From the sequence record MT542512: 39,461 nt of DNA. The stretch is one strand, 5' to 3'. This document shows, piece after piece, positions 889-35,979 of the stretch. The notes below the pieces were generated by a model that searched no databases, was not told where the DNA came from, and saw only the letters and a program-made list of their open reading frames with translations. Within the stretch, counting starts at the first letter, position 1, and every line of letters starts with the position of its first letter. The DNA comes from Escherichia phage PhiV-1. A program made the position numbers and the translations under genes.

Positions 889-953
889 CACTCTTGAGAT
901 GACGACAACAGCGATTAACTCAAGGTGACTCGAAAGAGAAGCCTTTATGATAA
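889..953 (+). promoter_or_regulatory. RNase III-type processing hairpin (R0.3 position)
   Basis: cttgag/ctcaag imperfect stem with G-U pairs followed by cctttatgata; resembles T7 R0.3 as recalled. Confidence 0.4.
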
Positions 954-980
954 TCACTGCAACCACATAAGGTAATCATC

Positions 981-1804: not shown

Positions 1805-2908
1805 ATGAACTACACCGACATTCAGGCACGTCTGGCAATCATCAAGTCACTCCCGATTAGCGAACTGGACAAGCGCCAGCCTCTTCTGGTTGCACTGGCT
1901 GCTGACATCGTGAATGGTGAGACAAGCGATGGCAACGACACAGACGGGTCGCAGGGTCTTGAGTATCAGGACTGGTGGCACACCTTGGGTGCACTCATGC
2001 GTGATGCAGGTTTCCGCATGCTGGGTAATGGTCACTTCAGTGCGGCCTACTCGCACGAAATGTTACCGGGTCGAGTCATCAAGGTTGGCTTTAAGAAAGA
2101 GGATTCAGGCGCTGCATACACTGCATTCTGTAGGATGCACCAAGGCCGTGCTGGTATCCCTAACGTCTATCACGTAGCACGTCATGCAGGTTGCTATACG
2201 GTCGTACTGGACCGCTTAAAAAGCTGTGACCGCTACGCTAACGATGTTCACGCAAAGTATGCAAGCGCTGCGCAGGAGTTCATTGAGTGCTCTGGAGGTG
2301 ATGCCGATTGGTACGCACAGTATGTTAGCAAGGAGTTCATTGAGACGTGCAAGATGATTCGTGAGTTCTTCCACGGTATTGCATCTTTCGACATGCACAG
2401 TGGGAACATTATGTTCGATGACAACGATGTCCCGTACATCACTGACCCGGTTAGTTTCTCACATGACCGTGAACGTGAGGATGGTTTCCCTCTGGACCCT
2501 GATGCGTTGATTGCCGAGGTCGAGGCGATAGCTAACGAGCGCATCATTGAACGGTGCCGCAACCGCAAGGCCAAATGTGACCCTAACGGAACCTTTCAGG
2601 TTAACCGCAAGGCCGCAATGAAACGCCGTAAGCGCAACCGCAAGTTACGTGCTAAACATGCAGCGGAAGGAATGCACCAGTTTGTCAAAGAGCGCCTTAA
2701 GCGTAAAGCTATTGACCGAAATGAACGCCGTGCTGAGATGCTCATGGGGTCTGCATGGCATTACGCATGGTTGCATAATGGTAACTCAACGTTCCGCAAG
2801 GTTGAACAAGTGAACGGCCTCAAGTGGCAACTAGGGGACCGCCTAGCAATCCAAGCGGGTCTACCTCTGAACATTGACAAGTTACTTGACGCACAACTGC
2901 AAGGCTGA
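1805..2908 (+). CDS. 0.7: Ser/Thr protein kinase / host shut-off protein
   Basis: 367 aa; strong match to recalled T7 gp0.7 (LGNGHFSAAYSH..RVIKVGFKKEDSGAAYTAFCRM..GIPNVY..HAGCYTVVLD, FDMHSGNIMF, VPYITDPVSFS). Confidence 0.9.
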   Translation: MNYTDIQARLAIIKSLPISELDKRQPLLVALAADIVNGETSDGNDTDGSQGLEYQDWWHTLGALMRDAGFRMLGNGHFSAAYSHEMLPGRVIKVGFKKEDSGAAYTAFCRMHQGRAGIPNVYHVARHAGCYTVVLDRLKSCDRYANDVHAKYASAAQEFIECSGGDADWYAQYVSKEFIETCKMIREFFHGIASFDMHSGNIMFDDNDVPYITDPVSFSHDREREDGFPLDPDALIAEVEAIANERIIERCRNRKAKCDPNGTFQVNRKAAMKRRKRNRKLRAKHAAEGMHQFVKERLKRKAIDRNERRAEMLMGSAWHYAWLHNGNSTFRKVEQVNGLKWQLGDRLAIQAGLPLNIDKLLDAQLQG

Positions 2909-2917
2909 TAAGGTGTA

Positions 2918-2955
2918 TCTTCAAGGTCGGCACTGACTGCTGGCCTTCATAGATA
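2918..2955 (+). promoter_or_regulatory. RNase III-type processing hairpin (R1 position)
   Basis: aaggtcgg...ctggcctt stem with G-U pairs then catagataaac; same family as the sites at 6297, 6817, 13473. Confidence 0.5.
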
Positions 2956-2981
2956 AACTTTCTTAACAACGTGAGGCAACA

Positions 2982-5723: not shown

Positions 5724-6281
5724 ATGTTTACTTTCATCACTTCAGTAGGCGCTCTCGTATCAACAATTCTTGCAGCAACATACTATAATCGTTCAAAGGT
5801 ATTTCTCACTAAGCTAATCAAAGAAGAGAAGAACTCTCATGCACTCAAAGAGAGACTTGAAGATGGATGGCGAGAGAAGCAGGAACTAGCTGGTCGAATC
5901 CGTACCTTAGAGTTCGAACAACAATACGACATGTCGAACCAACGAGAACTCATTGAGCGTCTACGCGCTGAGGCAGTGGAGTACCGCAAGGAACTTAAAG
6001 AGGCAAAGAGTACCATCCGTGAGTACACTCACAGTGACATCACGTCTATCAAGTTTACCGCTCACATCCCGGATGCTGGGTGGAAGCGCACTGAGTTCAA
6101 GCTGGGTATAGGGTCTTGTGGCAAAGAGGTTACATGTTTGCACTGGAAAGAACAGTCGGACCGCTATCTGCTGACACAGACGTGCACTGACGGTGAGCGC
6201 AAAGAGTTCACCTATTATAAGAAAGATGTAGCTGGTCGCATTGAGATTGCACGTAAGGTTGCAGACAATACGACTCACTAA
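5724..6281 (+). CDS. Hypothetical membrane-anchored coiled-coil protein (T3 gene 1.05 position)
   Basis: 185 aa from ATG 5724 with RBS gagga and tttaactttaag enhancer; the track ORF start at 5667 lies inside the promoter; N-terminal TM helix, central coiled coil, Cys-containing C-terminus. Confidence 0.6.
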   Translation: MFTFITSVGALVSTILAATYYNRSKVFLTKLIKEEKNSHALKERLEDGWREKQELAGRIRTLEFEQQYDMSNQRELIERLRAEAVEYRKELKEAKSTIREYTHSDITSIKFTAHIPDAGWKRTEFKLGIGSCGKEVTCLHWKEQSDRYLLTQTCTDGERKEFTYYKKDVAGRIEIARKVADNTTH

Positions 6282-6288
6282 TGGGAAA
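6266..6288 (+). promoter_or_regulatory. Phage RNAP promoter (phi1.1B position)
   Basis: CAATACGACTCACTAATGGGAAA; overlaps stop codon of upstream ORF. Confidence 0.7.
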
Positions 6289-6296
6289 CACTGAAA

Positions 6297-6340
6297 GTTA
6301 AACTCAAGGTCATCACTGCATGGTGGCCTTCATGATTAAC
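6297..6340 (+). promoter_or_regulatory. RNase III-type processing hairpin (R1.1 position)
   Basis: gttaaactcaaggtcatca / tggtggccttcatgattaac; 10-bp stem with G-U wobbles. Confidence 0.55.
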
Positions 6341-6372
6341 TGTCAACGATACTACCAAGAGGAAACAACATT

Positions 6373-6522
6373 ATGCGTACCAACTTTGAACCAACCACTA
6401 AGCGCAACAACGTAATCAACGAACACGGTGCTGAATGGCAGGAACGTAAAGACCGCATGAAGAAACGCCACAAGACACAACGTGGCAACGCTGAGAAACG
6501 TAACTGGAAGGAGGCACTCTAA
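6373..6522 (+). CDS. 1.1: Small basic protein gp1.1
   Basis: 49 aa (below track threshold); MRTNFEPTTKRNN... resembles recalled T7 gp1.1; stop overlaps 1.2 start. Confidence 0.6.
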   Translation: MRTNFEPTTKRNNVINEHGAEWQERKDRMKKRHKTQRGNAEKRNWKEAL

Positions 6523-6794
6523 TGGGTCGCTTATATAGTGGTAACTTAATGGCGTTAAAGGATGTCATCGAGAGACTTAAAGAAGACCACGATGTCAGTG
6601 TTGTAACTGAGACTTTCCGCTATGAGAACTACGCACAGCGCCGATGGGTCTCCGGTGAGACTCTCCGCATTGTTCTACGCAATGGCCTCGTACTGACATC
6701 CAAGTGTTTCGAACAGTCAGACGAAGATGTCCGGTGCAATGCACAGACTGAGTGGCTCCGCAAGGTACACGCAGACCTGAAGCACTGGAAGTAA
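6522..6794 (+). CDS. 1.2: Inhibitor of host dGTP triphosphohydrolase
   Basis: 90 aa; MGRLYSGNL... N-terminus and DEDV...W...DLKHWK C-terminus as in T7 gp1.2. Confidence 0.8.
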   Translation: MGRLYSGNLMALKDVIERLKEDHDVSVVTETFRYENYAQRRWVSGETLRIVLRNGLVLTSKCFEQSDEDVRCNAQTEWLRKVHADLKHWK

Positions 6795-6814
6795 TACGAC
6801 TCACTAATGCGAAA
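6792..6814 (+). promoter_or_regulatory. Phage RNAP promoter (phi1.3 position)
   Basis: TAATACGACTCACTAATGCGAAA (C at +2). Confidence 0.6.
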
Positions 6815-6816
6815 GA

Positions 6817-6861
6817 GTTAAACTAAAGGTCATCCATAATACGGTGGCCTTTGTGATTAAC
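6817..6861 (+). promoter_or_regulatory. RNase III-type processing hairpin (R1.3 position)
   Basis: gttaaactaaaggtcatc / ggtggcctttgtgattaac. Confidence 0.55.
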
Positions 6862-6898
6862 TTTTGACTACTTAATAACCAACAATAGGAGTTCCATC

Positions 6899-7930
6899 AT
6901 GGAAATCACATTCAAGACTAACCCTTTTAAAGCTGTATCCTACGTTGAGTCTGCCATTAAGAAAGCACTCGACAAAGCTGGCTACCTGATTGCTGACACT
7001 AAGCATGATGGTGTACGTGGTAACATCGTGGTTGACAATACGGCTGACTGCCTGTGGCTATCCCGTGTCTCCAAGACCATCCCCGCGCTTGAGCACCTCA
7101 ATGGGTTCGACCAACGCTGGGCTAATGTTCTCAAAGATGACCGCTGGATTTTCCCTGATGGCTTCATGCTGGATGGTGAACTGATGGTCAAAGGCGTAGA
7201 CTTCAACACAGGGTCTGGCCTACTGCGTACCAAGTGGCTCAAGAAGACAAACTGTGGATTTGATATTGGTGGAGTAGAGCCTCTCAAGGGGAGTAAAGTA
7301 GACTTCTGCCTAGACCCTAAGAAACTTAAGGTTGTCCTGTATGCCGCTATGCCGTATCACGATATGGTAGAAGGCAAAGAGTACGGCGTTATGTCCCTCC
7401 TGATGCAAGAGCATGTGCGTTCCCTCATTCCGGTTCTTAGTGAACACTTCCCGGAAATCACATGGGAACTCTCTGAGGCCAAAGAAGTATACGACATGGT
7501 AGAACTTCAGGAACTCTACGAGAAAGCCCGTGCCGATGGTCATGAAGGTCTGGTCGTCAAAGACCCGCTGGAAGTCTACAAGCGTGGCAAGAAGTCTGGC
7601 TGGTGGAAGATGAAGCCTGAGAATGAAGCTGATGGTATTATCGTTGGTATCAATTGGGGGACTAAAGGTCTCGCTAATGAAGGCAAAGTTATTGGCTTCG
7701 AGGTTCTCTTGGAGTCCGGTCGTGTAGTCTCTGCCAACAACATTAGTCAAGCATTGATGGATGAGTTTACCGCTGCCGTCAAACATGCTGAGTCTGTGGG
7801 TATGGGTATGCCGTACACTGGCTTCGCCTGTCAGGTAGCCTACATGGAGGAAACTCCTGATGGTTCTCTTCGTCACCCATCGTTCGTTATGTTCCGTGGT
7901 GTCGAGTCAGACCCAACGGTCAAGATGTAA
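6899..7930 (+). CDS. 1.3: ATP-dependent DNA ligase
   Basis: 343 aa; KxDG adenylation motif (TKHDGVRG); strong match to recalled T7 ligase. Confidence 0.95.
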   Translation: MEITFKTNPFKAVSYVESAIKKALDKAGYLIADTKHDGVRGNIVVDNTADCLWLSRVSKTIPALEHLNGFDQRWANVLKDDRWIFPDGFMLDGELMVKGVDFNTGSGLLRTKWLKKTNCGFDIGGVEPLKGSKVDFCLDPKKLKVVLYAAMPYHDMVEGKEYGVMSLLMQEHVRSLIPVLSEHFPEITWELSEAKEVYDMVELQELYEKARADGHEGLVVKDPLEVYKRGKKSGWWKMKPENEADGIIVGINWGTKGLANEGKVIGFEVLLESGRVVSANNISQALMDEFTAAVKHAESVGMGMPYTGFACQVAYMEETPDGSLRHPSFVMFRGVESDPTVKM

Positions 7931-7940
7931 GTAAATCAAT

Positions 7941-7975
7941 GGTCAGTCCTTAGCGGGGCTGGCCTTTTGCGTTTC
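7941..7975 (+). terminator. Intrinsic terminator for host RNAP (TE position)
   Basis: ggtcagtcc-ttagc-ggggctggcc hairpin followed by ttttgcgtttc, immediately after ligase as in T7. Confidence 0.5.
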
Positions 7976-10813: not shown

Positions 10814-10833
10814 TAGAACTCACTATGGGAGGA
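10811..10833 (+). promoter_or_regulatory. Phage RNAP promoter, variant (phi3.8/4c position)
   Basis: TAATAGAACTCACTATGGGAGGA. Confidence 0.5.
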
Positions 10834-10883
10834 CCGAAAGGTTTCTCCCTTTGTTCGCTAAAATTGTATAAGGAGTAACCACT

Positions 10884-12687
<1,804 letters not shown>

Positions 12688-13167: not shown

Positions 13168-13470
13168 ATGGCTATTAAATTCCCCGGCAACACAATCCGT
13201 CTGTCCGACACCATCGACCAGTATGCCCGTCGAGTGCACATCAACGTCCGCAACGGAAAGGTAACACTGGTCTACCGTTGGAAGGACAGTAAGTCCACCA
13301 AGGCGCACACACAGCGTGTGACTCTGGATGACACACAGGCAGGTCGTCTGCTGGCCTCCGTTGCTGTAGCCGCTACTGTGGCTGTAGGTGAAGACAATGT
13401 TCGTCAGGTTCTGCTGGGTAAAGCCGTGGAGTCTGAGGGCAACATGCTTGCTGACAAGTGTGAAGAGTAA
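13168..13470 (+). CDS. Hypothetical protein (gene 4.5 position)
   Basis: 100 aa; RBS taggag; no recognised motif. Confidence 0.55.
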   Translation: MAIKFPGNTIRLSDTIDQYARRVHINVRNGKVTLVYRWKDSKSTKAHTQRVTLDDTQAGRLLASVAVAATVAVGEDNVRQVLLGKAVESEGNMLADKCEE

Positions 13471-13472
13471 GA

Positions 13473-13517
13473 GTTAAACTAAAGGTCATCTTAACGGGTG
13501 GCCTTCGTGATTAACTT
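13473..13517 (+). promoter_or_regulatory. RNase III-type processing hairpin (R4.7 position)
   Basis: gagttaaactaaaggtcatc / gggtggccttcgtgattaac. Confidence 0.55.
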
Positions 13518-13528
13518 TTGTATGAAAT

Positions 13529-16630: not shown

Positions 16631-16839
16631 TGGGTGAATATCTACGTGTACTGGCGGCTATCAAAAGCTGCCCTAAGACCTTTCAGTCGAACTATGTGCG
16701 CAACAATGCGTCACTGGTGGCTGAGGCTGCGAGTCGAGGTCATATCTCTTGCCTATCAGTCGATGGGCGTAATGCTGGCGCTTGGGAAGTAACAGGCGCT
16801 GGTGTCCGATTCCTGAAGAAGATGGGAGGTTGCGTATGA
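16630..16839 (+). CDS. 5.7: gp5.7 protein
   Basis: 69 aa; YL.VL.AIKSCPKTFQSNYVRNNASLVAEAASRGHISCLS.DGRN near-identical to recalled T7 gp5.7. Confidence 0.8.
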   Translation: MGEYLRVLAAIKSCPKTFQSNYVRNNASLVAEAASRGHISCLSVDGRNAGAWEVTGAGVRFLKKMGGCV

Positions 16840-17932: not shown

Positions 17933-17988
17933 TGTTCGCAATCGTAGTCCTCGCAATGGTGTGGGCTGCATTCATCGCAACACTTTGA
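17932..17988 (+). CDS. Tiny hydrophobic ORF (18 aa) at gene 6.3 position
   Basis: MFAIVVLAMVWAAFIATL; very short. Confidence 0.15.
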   Translation: MFAIVVLAMVWAAFIATL

Positions 17989-18023
17989 GTGTGTAACTCT
18001 AGGCATTCTGACCCTCGTGAAAT

Positions 18024-18046
18024 CAATACGACTCACTATGGGAGAG
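18024..18046 (+). promoter_or_regulatory. Phage RNAP promoter (phi6.5 position)
   Basis: CAATACGACTCACTATGGGAGAG. Confidence 0.65.
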
Positions 18047-18099
18047 GGGTGCCTATATGATACCTACTTTAAGTTCTAACTTTAAGGAGAACATCTATT

Positions 18100-21703: not shown

Positions 21704-22747
21704 ATGGCTAACATGAATGGTGGACAGCAGATGGGTAAAGACCAAGGTAAAGGCATGAGCGCTGGTGACAAACTGGCTCTGTTCCTGAAGGTCTTCGGTG
21801 GTGAAGTTCTGACTGCATTTACCCGTACCTCCGTAACTATGAACAAACACCTTGTGCGTTCTATTCAGTCCGGTAAGTCCGCGCAGTTCCCTGTGCTGGG
21901 TCGTACCAAAGCTGCTTACCTGCAACCGGGTGAGAACCTCGATGACAAACGTAAAGACATGAAGCACACTGAGAAGGTCATCAACATTGATGGTCTGCTG
22001 ACTGCTGACGTTCTGATTTACGACATCGAAGACGCAATGAACCACTATGACGTGCGCTCCGAGTATACCGCACAGTTGGGTGAATCTCTCGCGATGGCTG
22101 CTGATGGCGCGGTTCTGGCTGAAATGGCTAAACTGTGTAACCTGCCGTCTGCGTCTGATGAGAACATCGCTGGTCTCGGTAAGGCTCATGTACTGGAAGT
22201 TGGCAAGCAGTCTGATCTTCAGGGAGACCAAGTTAAGCTGGGTCAGGCTATTATCGCACAGTTAACTCTGGCTCGTGCCAAGCTGACTAGCAACTATGTT
22301 CCGTCTGCTGACCGTGTGTTCTACACCACTCCAGACAACTACTCTGCTATTCTGGCTGCTCTGATGCCTAACGCTGCAAACTATCAGGCTCTGATTGACC
22401 CGTCTACTGGCTCTATCCGCAACGTTATGGGCTTCGAAGTTATTGAGGTTCCGCATCTGACTGCTGGTGGTGCTGGCGAAGACCGTCCAGAAGAGGGTGT
22501 AAATCCGACTGGTCAGAAACATGCGTTCCCTGAGACTTCCTCTGGTGACACCCGTGTTGCTCTGGACAACGTTGTCGGTCTGTTCAATCACCGCTCTGCC
22601 GTTGGTACTGTTAAGCTGAAAGATATGGCACTGGAACGTGCTCGTCGAGCTAACTTCCAAGCAGACCAGATTATCGCTAAGTACGCTATGGGTCACGGTG
22701 GTCTGCGCCCTGAAGCATGTGGCGCGCTGGTTTTCAACAAGGCTTAA
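21704..22747 (+). CDS. 10A: Major capsid protein 10A
   Basis: 347 aa; MA.M.GGQQMG N-terminus and RANFQADQIIAKYAMGHGGLRPEA as in T7 gp10A. Confidence 0.98.
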   Translation: MANMNGGQQMGKDQGKGMSAGDKLALFLKVFGGEVLTAFTRTSVTMNKHLVRSIQSGKSAQFPVLGRTKAAYLQPGENLDDKRKDMKHTEKVINIDGLLTADVLIYDIEDAMNHYDVRSEYTAQLGESLAMAADGAVLAEMAKLCNLPSASDENIAGLGKAHVLEVGKQSDLQGDQVKLGQAIIAQLTLARAKLTSNYVPSADRVFYTTPDNYSAILAALMPNAANYQALIDPSTGSIRNVMGFEVIEVPHLTAGGAGEDRPEEGVNPTGQKHAFPETSSGDTRVALDNVVGLFNHRSAVGTVKLKDMALERARRANFQADQIIAKYAMGHGGLRPEACGALVFNKA

Positions 22748-22881
22748 CTTCTCGCAAACTCGTGGGGGACATTGAGTCCCTTACTGAAGTTGAGCAAGAG
22801 CTAACGCCACAACAGAAAGCTGCCCGTACCCGTGCGGCAAACAAGGCTCGAAAGGAAGCTGAGTTAGCTGCTACTGAATGA
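21704..22881 (+). CDS. 10B: Minor capsid protein 10B (10A extended by -1 frameshift at 22729-22735)
   Basis: -1 frame after slippery site encodes ..QQGLTSRKLVGDIESLTEVEQELTPQQKAARTRAANKARKEAELAATE, ending just before the terminator hairpin. Confidence 0.5.
22729..22735 (+). other. Putative -1 programmed ribosomal frameshift heptamer G_GUU_UUC
   Basis: Heptamer 15 nt before the 10A stop; the -1 frame stays open for 50 codons to TGA at 22879. Confidence 0.55.
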
Positions 22882-22891
22882 TAACTATATG

Positions 22892-22933
22892 AAACCCCTT
22901 GGGTGCCTTCGCGGGTGCTTGAGGGGTTTTTTT
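22892..22933 (+). terminator. Tphi-like late terminator
   Basis: aaccccttgggtgccttcgcgggtgcttgaggggttttttt; G-U containing hairpin plus U-tract, resembles T7 Tphi. Confidence 0.7.
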
Positions 22934-25966: not shown

Positions 25967-25993
25967 ATGAAACACCCCGACTCAATAAGTGAA

Positions 25994-26016
25994 CAATACG
26001 ACTCACTATTGGGAAG
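25994..26016 (+). promoter_or_regulatory. Phage RNAP promoter (phi13)
   Basis: CAATACGACTCACTATTGGGAAG. Confidence 0.7.
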
Positions 26017-26042
26017 GGGTTTATACTTAAAGGAGAAACTCT

Positions 26043-35625: not shown

Positions 35626-35881
35626 ATCTTTGATTCAATTCCTTGAGATGCTGGACACTGAGATGGCTCAACGTATGCTTGCTGACTTGCAGAACGATGA
35701 ACGCCGTACACCTCAACTGTACAACGCAATCGGGAAACTGTTAGAACGCCACAAGTTCCAAGTCTCCAAGTTACAGCCAGACCGTAACATCCTTGGTGGA
35801 CTGGCAGATGGACTTCAGGAGTATCAGAACCTAGTAGGTGACGATGGTCTCACTGAAGATGAGAAGTACACGCTGAACTGA
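35615..35881 (+). CDS. 18: Terminase small subunit
   Basis: 88 aa; DKSLI.FLEMLDT.MAQRMLADL...ERR.PQLYNAI.KLL.RHKFQ..KLQPD..ILGGLA as in T7 gp18. Confidence 0.9.
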   Translation: MSDKSLIQFLEMLDTEMAQRMLADLQNDERRTPQLYNAIGKLLERHKFQVSKLQPDRNILGGLADGLQEYQNLVGDDGLTEDEKYTLN

Positions 35882-35885
35882 TGGA

Positions 35886-35925
35886 ATAACTCAAGGCCAC
35901 TACATCTAGTGGTCTTTATGATATT
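35886..35925 (+). promoter_or_regulatory. RNase III-type processing hairpin (R18.5 position)
   Basis: aaggccacta-catc-tagtggtctt 10-bp stem then tatgatattt. Confidence 0.5.
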
Positions 35926-35979
35926 TCAACACAACTCACGGTGACGCTACGTGAAATCTGAAAATACGGGAGGGTAGTT

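Follow-up and report, generated by a model that had tools for sequence, protein, structure and literature searches.

Escherichia coli RNase III recognises about two helical turns through base pairs in a proximal and a distal box, and internal loops restrict its cleavage to a single phosphodiester (PMC1540722). The early precursor RNA of phage T7 is cut co-transcriptionally at five sites, and the R1.1 RNA is cut at one bond (PMC4858673). R1.1 is the standard model substrate for the enzyme (PMC1540722, PMC4858673). A hairpin retained at the 3' end guards the upstream RNA from 3'-5' exonucleases (PMC1540722). In addition, the kinase domain of T7 gene 0.7 phosphorylates and stimulates host RNase III and raises its turnover (PMC4858673).

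The window analysed here, the 39,461 bp of Escherichia phage PhiV-1 in record MT542512, represents a T7-family podophage genome that is complete or nearly so. One piece of 8.5 kb matches the Escherichia phages ErnstBeyeler, BA14 and 285P as well as Salmonella, Yersinia and Kluyvera relatives at 90-95% identity and, judged by its alignments, the phage is Berlinvirus-like, with ~94-95% identity to BA14 and 285P. In the ORF map the gene order is colinear with BA14 and T7, and the genes that flank the hairpins described below are T7 homologues by Pfam and BLASTP (0.3-position/0.7/RNAP, 1.1/1.2/ligase, 4.5/4.7 and 18/18.5); the last pair consists of the small terminase subunit gp18 and an Rz-like gp18.5. 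The first early gene (981-1436) encodes a SAM lyase (PF23780, E 8e-40), that is a T3-type anti-restriction function and not an Ocr-like one as in T7, although the R0.3-type leader hairpin in front of it is kept.

Other signals were observed along the genome. About 17 phage-polymerase promoters lie at 431, 5648, 6273, 6799, 7982, 8088, 9059, 10818, 12703, 13536, 18031, 20588, 21582, 22948, 26001, 33341 and 38853; their core is AATACGACTCACTAWTGGGA, close to the T7 promoter, and the -1/+1 region reads TAATGGGA or TATTGGGA, not TATAGGGA. A strong terminator hairpin with a U-tract (GGUCAGUCCUUAGCGGGGCUGGCC + UUUUGCGUUU) is found at 7941-7964 as the early terminator after the ligase gene, and the late terminator after gene 10 spans 22891-22932, with an 18-bp stem of -25.5 kcal/mol and a UUUUUU tract. 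A stable hairpin at 22738-22797 (-24.9 kcal/mol) covers the end of gene 10A for the major capsid protein, stop codon included (ORF end 22747), and could relate to the frameshift that yields the longer 10B form in T7-like phages. The most stable 60-nt local folds of the plus strand were found within coding sequence, at 12526-12585 in the gene 4 / 4.2 overlap (-28.0 kcal/mol) and at 16747-16806 in the gene 5.7 region (-29.4 kcal/mol).

Six hairpins of this genome can be read, with a probability of about 0.9, as orthologous and paralogous to the RNase III processing signals of phage T7. The observations concern their sequence, fold, strand bias, synteny, covariation and homology to the T7 sites. 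The hairpins had been proposed as an RNase III-type family in a sequence-only reading of the window, and all six were found at or within the ranges that it gave. One of these ranges, 889-953, begins ~20 nt early and stops a few nucleotides short; the others span the core of each hairpin and miss part of the lower stems. Table 1 gives the coordinates as they now stand, together with those of the further sites discussed below.

Table 1. RNase III-type sites of the PhiV-1 window with their scores, structure, predicted cuts and surroundings (CM, covariance model built from T7 sites only; z, fold z-score)
Feature	Coordinates	Strand	Scores and basis	Structural details	Predicted cut	Context and orthologues
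R0.3-type site	908..960	+	z -2.04; CM 42.5 bits, E 2.6e-7	upper stem with 2x2 internal mismatch (two mismatched pairs)	after 948	leader of first early gene (T3-type SAM lyase)
Gene 0.7 homologue	1805..2908	+	53% identity to T7 gp0.7, E 3e-134			context, not a site
R1-type site	2909..2962	+	z -4.39; CM 43.1 bits, E 1.9e-7		after 2950 (CCUUCAU^AGAUA)	between kinase gene 0.7 and RNA polymerase gene 1; in 14 related loci at a mean identity of 0.95
R1.1-type site (focus of the sequence-only reading)	6292..6345	+	z -3.46; CM 50.2 bits, E 3.9e-9	lower stem 6292-6301/6336-6345; internal loop ACUC / CAUGA; upper stem 6306-6330	single cut after U6333 (CCUUCAU^GAUUAAC)	starts 9 nt past phi1.1 promoter +1 (G6283); ends 27 nt before gene 1.1
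R1.3-type site	6812..6866	+	z -5.13; CM 49.0 bits, E 7.4e-9	internal loop largely closed through extra U-G/A-U pairs, as in T7 R1.3	after 6854	between gene 1.2 and ligase gene, 3 nt past phi1.3 +1 (G6809); 12 related loci
R3.8-type hairpin	10827..10852 (hairpin 10827-10849)	+	alignment with T7 and BA14; z -1.15	GGGAGGACC-GAAA-GGUUUCUCCC; stem 9 bp + bulge	after 10852, by analogy	begins at +1 of promoter upstream of gene 4; T7 + 12 related loci (BA14 + 11 IMG/VR contigs)
R4.7-type site	13468..13520	+	z -3.91; CM 53.8 bits, E 5.6e-10		after 13508	begins on gene 4.5 stop codon, upstream of phi4.7 promoter; 11 related loci
R6.5-type split site	17987..18069	+	fold; 12-sequence alignment; strongest arm-promoter complementarity	lower stem 17987-17995/18061-18069 (GAGUGUGUA/UACCUACUU); internal loop ACUC / UAUGA; upper stem 18000-18009/18046-18055 (UAGGCAUUCU/GGGGUGCCUA)	after U18058	phi6.5 promoter inside apical loop
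R13-type structure	25974..26020	+	fold z -3.16; duplex -21.8 kcal/mol	arm 25974-25992 pairs with 26003-26020	near 26020-26023, by analogy; exact nucleotide not predictable	3' arm is phi13 promoter + first transcribed bases
R18.5-type site	35879..35931	+	z -5.00; CM 40.7 bits, E 6.7e-7		after 35919	between gene 18 and gene 18.5

The comparison with T7 started from the cleavage coordinates that we take to be 890, 1468, 3138, 5887, 6448, 11203, 13892, 18563, 27281 and 36856. The T7 sites and their coordinates are reportedly described in the 1983 work of Dunn and Studier. In the T7 feature tables as viewed (NC_001604, V01146), RNase III features were not found. When the ten T7 regions at these coordinates were folded, seven of them were found to share one architecture and the boxes ACUCAAGGnC...GGnCUUUAUGAU. 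A covariance model built solely from these seven sites was run with filters off on both strands of the window and returned exactly six sites, all on the plus strand (40.7-53.8 bits, E 5.6e-10 to 6.7e-7), and the next match reached 13.8 bits with an E of 1.5. This gap indicates that the canonical family is exactly as large as had been said, with no seventh member.

In parallel, the six window sites and the seven T7 sites were aligned on a structure of 10 lower pairs, 9 upper pairs and a 4x5 internal loop. In this joint alignment 91.8% of the cells are paired and 13 of the 19 pairs show changes on both sides; none of 500 shuffles did as well, and sliding the 3' partner by 1-3 columns left 32-51% of the cells paired. 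The third nucleotide on the 3' side of the loop falls, in the seven T7 rows, at 890, 1468, 3138, 5887, 6448, 13892 and 36856, that is at the assumed coordinates in 7 of 7 rows, which validates both these coordinates and the register. The same column gives the predicted cuts of the six window sites (YAU^GA; Table 1). The counterparts claimed for T7 R0.3, R1, R1.1, R1.3, R4.7 and R18.5 are thus supported by the T7-only model, by the synteny of the flanking genes and by the cleavage column. Moreover, the R1.1-, R1.3- and R4.7-type sites match T7 R1.1, the RNA on which the proximal, middle and distal recognition boxes were defined, at each of the first eight pairs of the upper stem, so that the determinants of RNase III recognition are presumably kept in these three; two mismatches fall in this part of the 0.3 site.

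RNA folding of each site had been named as one way to check the proposal. All six sites, which are intergenic and on the sense strand, fold into a lower and an upper stem separated by an asymmetric internal loop, with plus-strand minimum free energies (MFE) of -16.4 to -20.9 kcal/mol and z-scores against dinucleotide shuffles of -3.5 to -5.1 at five sites and -2.0 at the gene 0.3 site. The lower stem has 10 pairs and the upper stem 9-10 pairs (AAGGnC...GGnCUU) in every site, 15-19 of the 19 modelled pairs are formed per site, and the apical loops measure 4-8 nt. The 4x5-nt asymmetric internal loop ACUC / YAUGA is present in five of the six; R1 has UUC / CAUAG, like T7 R1, and the loop of the R1.3-type site is partly closed, like that of T7 R1.3. 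A loose motif, AAGG-N14-30-CYTYNNWGAT, was counted 9 times where 0.46 would be expected, a number that none of the shuffles attained. When MFE was scanned along the plus strand in sliding 60-nt segments, G+C-rich coding hairpins and terminators ranked highest, not these A+U-rich sites.

G-U wobble pairs are present as described, with 1-4 in each site, from which it is expected that the reverse complements fold worse; this was seen at five of the six, with -7.7 to -13.2 kcal/mol. The further statement that the stems pair only as RNA holds in part: sense RNA folds better than DNA at all six, yet the same hairpins also form with DNA parameters, more weakly (-6 to -9 kcal/mol), and at the 0.3 site the minus strand has a fold of -18.9 kcal/mol. 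The difference between the strands is one of degree and not all-or-none.

Relatives were examined at 34 early loci, which comprise the BA14 genome and 33 IMG/VR contigs with the RNA polymerase gene as anchor, and at 80 terminase-anchored loci, among them 40-41-kb genomes at 78% terminase identity. In the early loci the T7-only model found 75 sites, all on the polymerase strand; they come from BA14 and the 14 contigs with a polymerase identity of 74% or more, and contigs at 35-46% gave none. Sites in relatives fall at the same six positions as in the window, even where the neighbouring genes differ. In nearly all of the 80 terminase-anchored loci an R18.5-type site was observed upstream of the terminase gene, mostly at ~500 nt and at ~1.1 kb in the closest relatives of the window. 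Altogether, 179 of 179 model matches in relatives are on the transcribed strand.

Pairing is maintained in these collections. Among 62 distinct early-region sequences 92.3% of the cells are paired and 14 of the 19 pairs changed on both sides; among 66 distinct sequences of the terminase-anchored loci, a set that also takes in some early-region sites from contigs running past the genome end, 94.1% are paired. With the joint T7 alignment the three sets give 91.8-94.1% paired and 13-14 of the 19 pairs changed on both sides against 27-53% paired in slid controls, the percentages being somewhat inflated because in two of the three cases the covariance model fitted the sequences to the structure. 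Close relatives have essentially invariant stems at the R1.1-, R1.3- and R4.7-type sites, with hypervariable apical loops. Invariant stems with free apical loops read, in these alignments, as a signature of selection on the duplex.

The hairpins noticed earlier as near-identical at 6297-6340, 6817-6861 and 13473-13517, here the R1.1-, R1.3- and R4.7-type sites, share almost their whole stem, lower stem included. In the lineage of PhiV-1 these three have one common lower stem (GAGUUAAAC / GAUUAACUUU), whereas the T7 lower stems all differ. Identity among the three paralogues is 0.70-0.81 against 0.86-0.92 among orthologues, and paralogues of the same genome are as similar as those of different genomes (0.81 and 0.80 for R1.3/R4.7, for example). 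This comparison gave no sign of ongoing gene conversion within genomes (concerted evolution) and points to an old duplication.

Abrupt changes of identity across hairpins were often observed in the flanks of related loci (L001, L004, L006 and L008); at R1.3, for example, BA14 goes from 86% identity upstream to 99.5% downstream, and at R1 the values for L004 are 75% and 94%. Such alignments suggest mosaic module boundaries at intergenic hairpin cassettes. It is a tentative and rather unlikely idea that, in the BA14/Kvp1/Berlin lineage, the hairpin GAGUUAAACU-AAGGUCAUC...GGUGGCCUU-GUGAUUAACUUUU was copied or converted onto R1.1, R1.3 and R4.7 and that the cassettes double as recombination junctions. 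If it were true, cassettes and adjacent promoters would let related phages swap modules, and the abrupt identity changes would be explained.

In another reading, the hairpins are a dispersed DNA-level repeat, be it recombination-junction cassettes or selfish repeats, and the RNA structure is incidental. The nearly complete stem sequence in common, a paralogue identity that approaches that of orthologues and the jumps of identity often seen across a site are all in its favour. It is nevertheless very improbable, as every match in relatives is on the transcribed strand, compensatory changes and conserved U-G wobbles keep the RNA pairing, and the apical loops drift while the stems do not. DNA-level roles could be additional, yet they leave the strand bias, the wobbles and the compensatory changes unexplained. 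A further reading of these intergenic hairpins is that they terminate transcription or pause the host or the phage RNA polymerase, and true terminators do exist elsewhere in the window, at 7941-7964 and 22891-22932. Here, however, no U-run follows any site, no terminator was called at any of them, a conserved internal loop breaks up the A+U-rich stems, and promoters that must drive the downstream genes lie a few nucleotides ahead of R1.1 and R1.3. Hardly any credence is left for a terminator or pause signal.

Alternatively, the hairpins might remain uncleaved and act mainly as RNase III-independent stabilisers or barriers, through 3'-end protection or a block to RNase E or exonucleases. Stable sense-strand hairpins do sit at gene ends, a 3' hairpin protects RNA however the end arose, and a bulge-helix-bulge variant of R1.1 binds RNase III without cleavage (PMC1540722). 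A plain protective hairpin would have no need, however, of the ACUC / YAUGA loop sequences and the lower stem, which are conserved as well, and the three best sites begin their upper stem with the pairs of a model substrate that is cleaved. Stabilisation of this kind is considered highly improbable as the main role, and RNase III processing signals of the T7 type are the reading retained below.

Four T7 sites had been left without clear counterparts in the sequence-only reading, namely R0.5, R3.8, R6.5 and R13. This stands for R0.5, and folds and alignments now give counterparts for the other three, a clear one in the case of R6.5, so that nine of T7's ten sites have counterparts in PhiV-1, the activity of the R3.8-type site being uncertain. 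No R0.5 counterpart was found by an unfiltered covariance-model search of the whole window or by reading 1620-1815, and the fold of 1700-1805 was unremarkable (z -0.25). The absence fits that of genes 0.4 and 0.5, which T7 has and PhiV-1 lacks.

Some relatives carry additional canonical sites between genes 0.3 and 0.7, one or two each (L007:1410-1469 and 1941-2001; L015:5610-5669 and 6206-6265; L009:5084-5144), and these are among the best-scoring matches, reaching 60 bits. Predicted early processing sites thus vary in number with gene content in the group, and the lack of an R0.5-like site is specific to the gene arrangement of PhiV-1.

The R6.5-type site is split, as in T7, where the canonical boxes and loop are likewise present and the promoter lies in the apical loop. 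The T7 upper stem, AAGGUCCCUA/UAGGGGCCUU, differs from that of PhiV-1 at several pairs, all of them compensated; the upper stem is AAGGCUCUC/GAGGGAGCCUU in T3-like contigs and AUGGCCUCUA/UAGGGGCCAU in one further relative (L090), again with compensatory changes. In an alignment of 12 sequences 93.3% of the cells are paired and 6 pairs changed on both sides, with 40-57% in slid controls. The R13-type structure resembles T7 R13 in that an upstream arm is complementary to the phi13 promoter through about +10, and it differs from it in that the PhiV-1 arms are interrupted by two internal loops. This arm changes along with the promoter of each relative, as read by eye from the folds. When the arm-promoter duplexes of 16 promoters were scored, phi6.5 gave -23.0 and phi13 -21.8 kcal/mol, and the others -6.8 to -15.3 kcal/mol. 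As R6.5 and R13 enclose a phage promoter, their duplex would form only in read-through RNA and not in RNA begun at that promoter.

The R3.8-type hairpin begins at +1, like that of T7 R3.8, and its 3' flank CCCUUUGUUCGC is identical to the T7 one. Its stem is shorter than the 11-12 bp found in T7, and an 11-bp helix has been reported as minimal for a model RNase III substrate (PMC1540722). Judged by alignment, the hairpin is a positional homologue of T7 R3.8; its fold does not stand out (z -1.15), and because of the shorter stem its activity is uncertain.

For the PhiV-1 sites we infer binding and cleavage by RNase III, the exact positions of the cuts and effects on mRNA stability and translation. 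The ~10-bp lower stem would stack on the 9-10-bp upper stem to make up about two helical turns, which a dimer of host RNase III could bind. The asymmetric 4x5-nt loop would then limit the enzyme to one cut on the 3' strand, between the U and the G of YAU^GA. The upstream mRNA would end in the upper-stem hairpin and be shielded from 3'-5' exonucleases, and the downstream mRNA would gain a short unstructured leader before its ribosome-binding site. The early transcript starts at host-polymerase promoters that lie upstream of gene 0.3 and extends to the terminator at 7941-7964; it is expected to be cut at R0.3, R1, R1.1 and R1.3. Its four cuts would leave messages for 0.3-0.6, 0.7, polymerase, 1.05, 1.1-1.2 and ligase. 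Transcripts of the phage polymerase would be cut at R4.7, R6.5, R13, R18.5 and perhaps R3.8.

RNase III processing of T7 mRNAs is classical, and the PhiV-1 sites are its orthologues in an unannotated relative; they leave the current understanding of RNase III and of T7 gene expression unchanged. Their use is rather in annotation. Processing sites are missing from the public records of this phage group, in which promoters and terminators are marked: in the BA14 record promoters are annotated and RNase III sites are not, the Kvp1 genome paper never mentions RNase III, and a search of the literature on such sites in BA14, Kvp1 or the Berlin group (Berlinvirus) found nothing specific. Rfam has no family for them, and no Rfam family was matched at gathering thresholds over the whole window or at E<=10 over 6200-6900, as T7 RNase III sites are not curated there. 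With the structure model from this analysis, such sites could be annotated in T7, T3, Berlin and Klebsiella T7-like phages. Boundaries of mature mRNAs are predicted by the sites as well, with four early cuts in PhiV-1 against five in T7, and these boundaries may be useful for phage engineering, or the hairpins themselves as mRNA-stabilising or insulating parts.

Compared with known systems, the six hairpins are closest to the canonical sites of T7 (R0.3, R0.5, R1, R1.1, R1.3, R4.7 and R18.5). Both have a 10-bp lower stem, a 4x5 loop and an upper stem of 9-10 bp; they share the boxes ACUCAAGGnC / GGnCUUYAUGAU and a conserved U-G wobble at upper-stem position 5, and both lie on the same strand at the same intergenic positions. 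PhiV-1 departs from T7 in having gene 1.05 between the polymerase gene and R1.1. Cellular substrates of E. coli RNase III, such as the stems of the rRNA precursor and the rnc leader, have in common with the phage sites a double helix of about two turns with proximal and distal box pairs (PMC1540722). The cellular substrates named in that work form a continuous helix that is cut on both strands, whereas the phage sites have an internal loop and a single predicted cut, by which the 3' hairpin would be retained.
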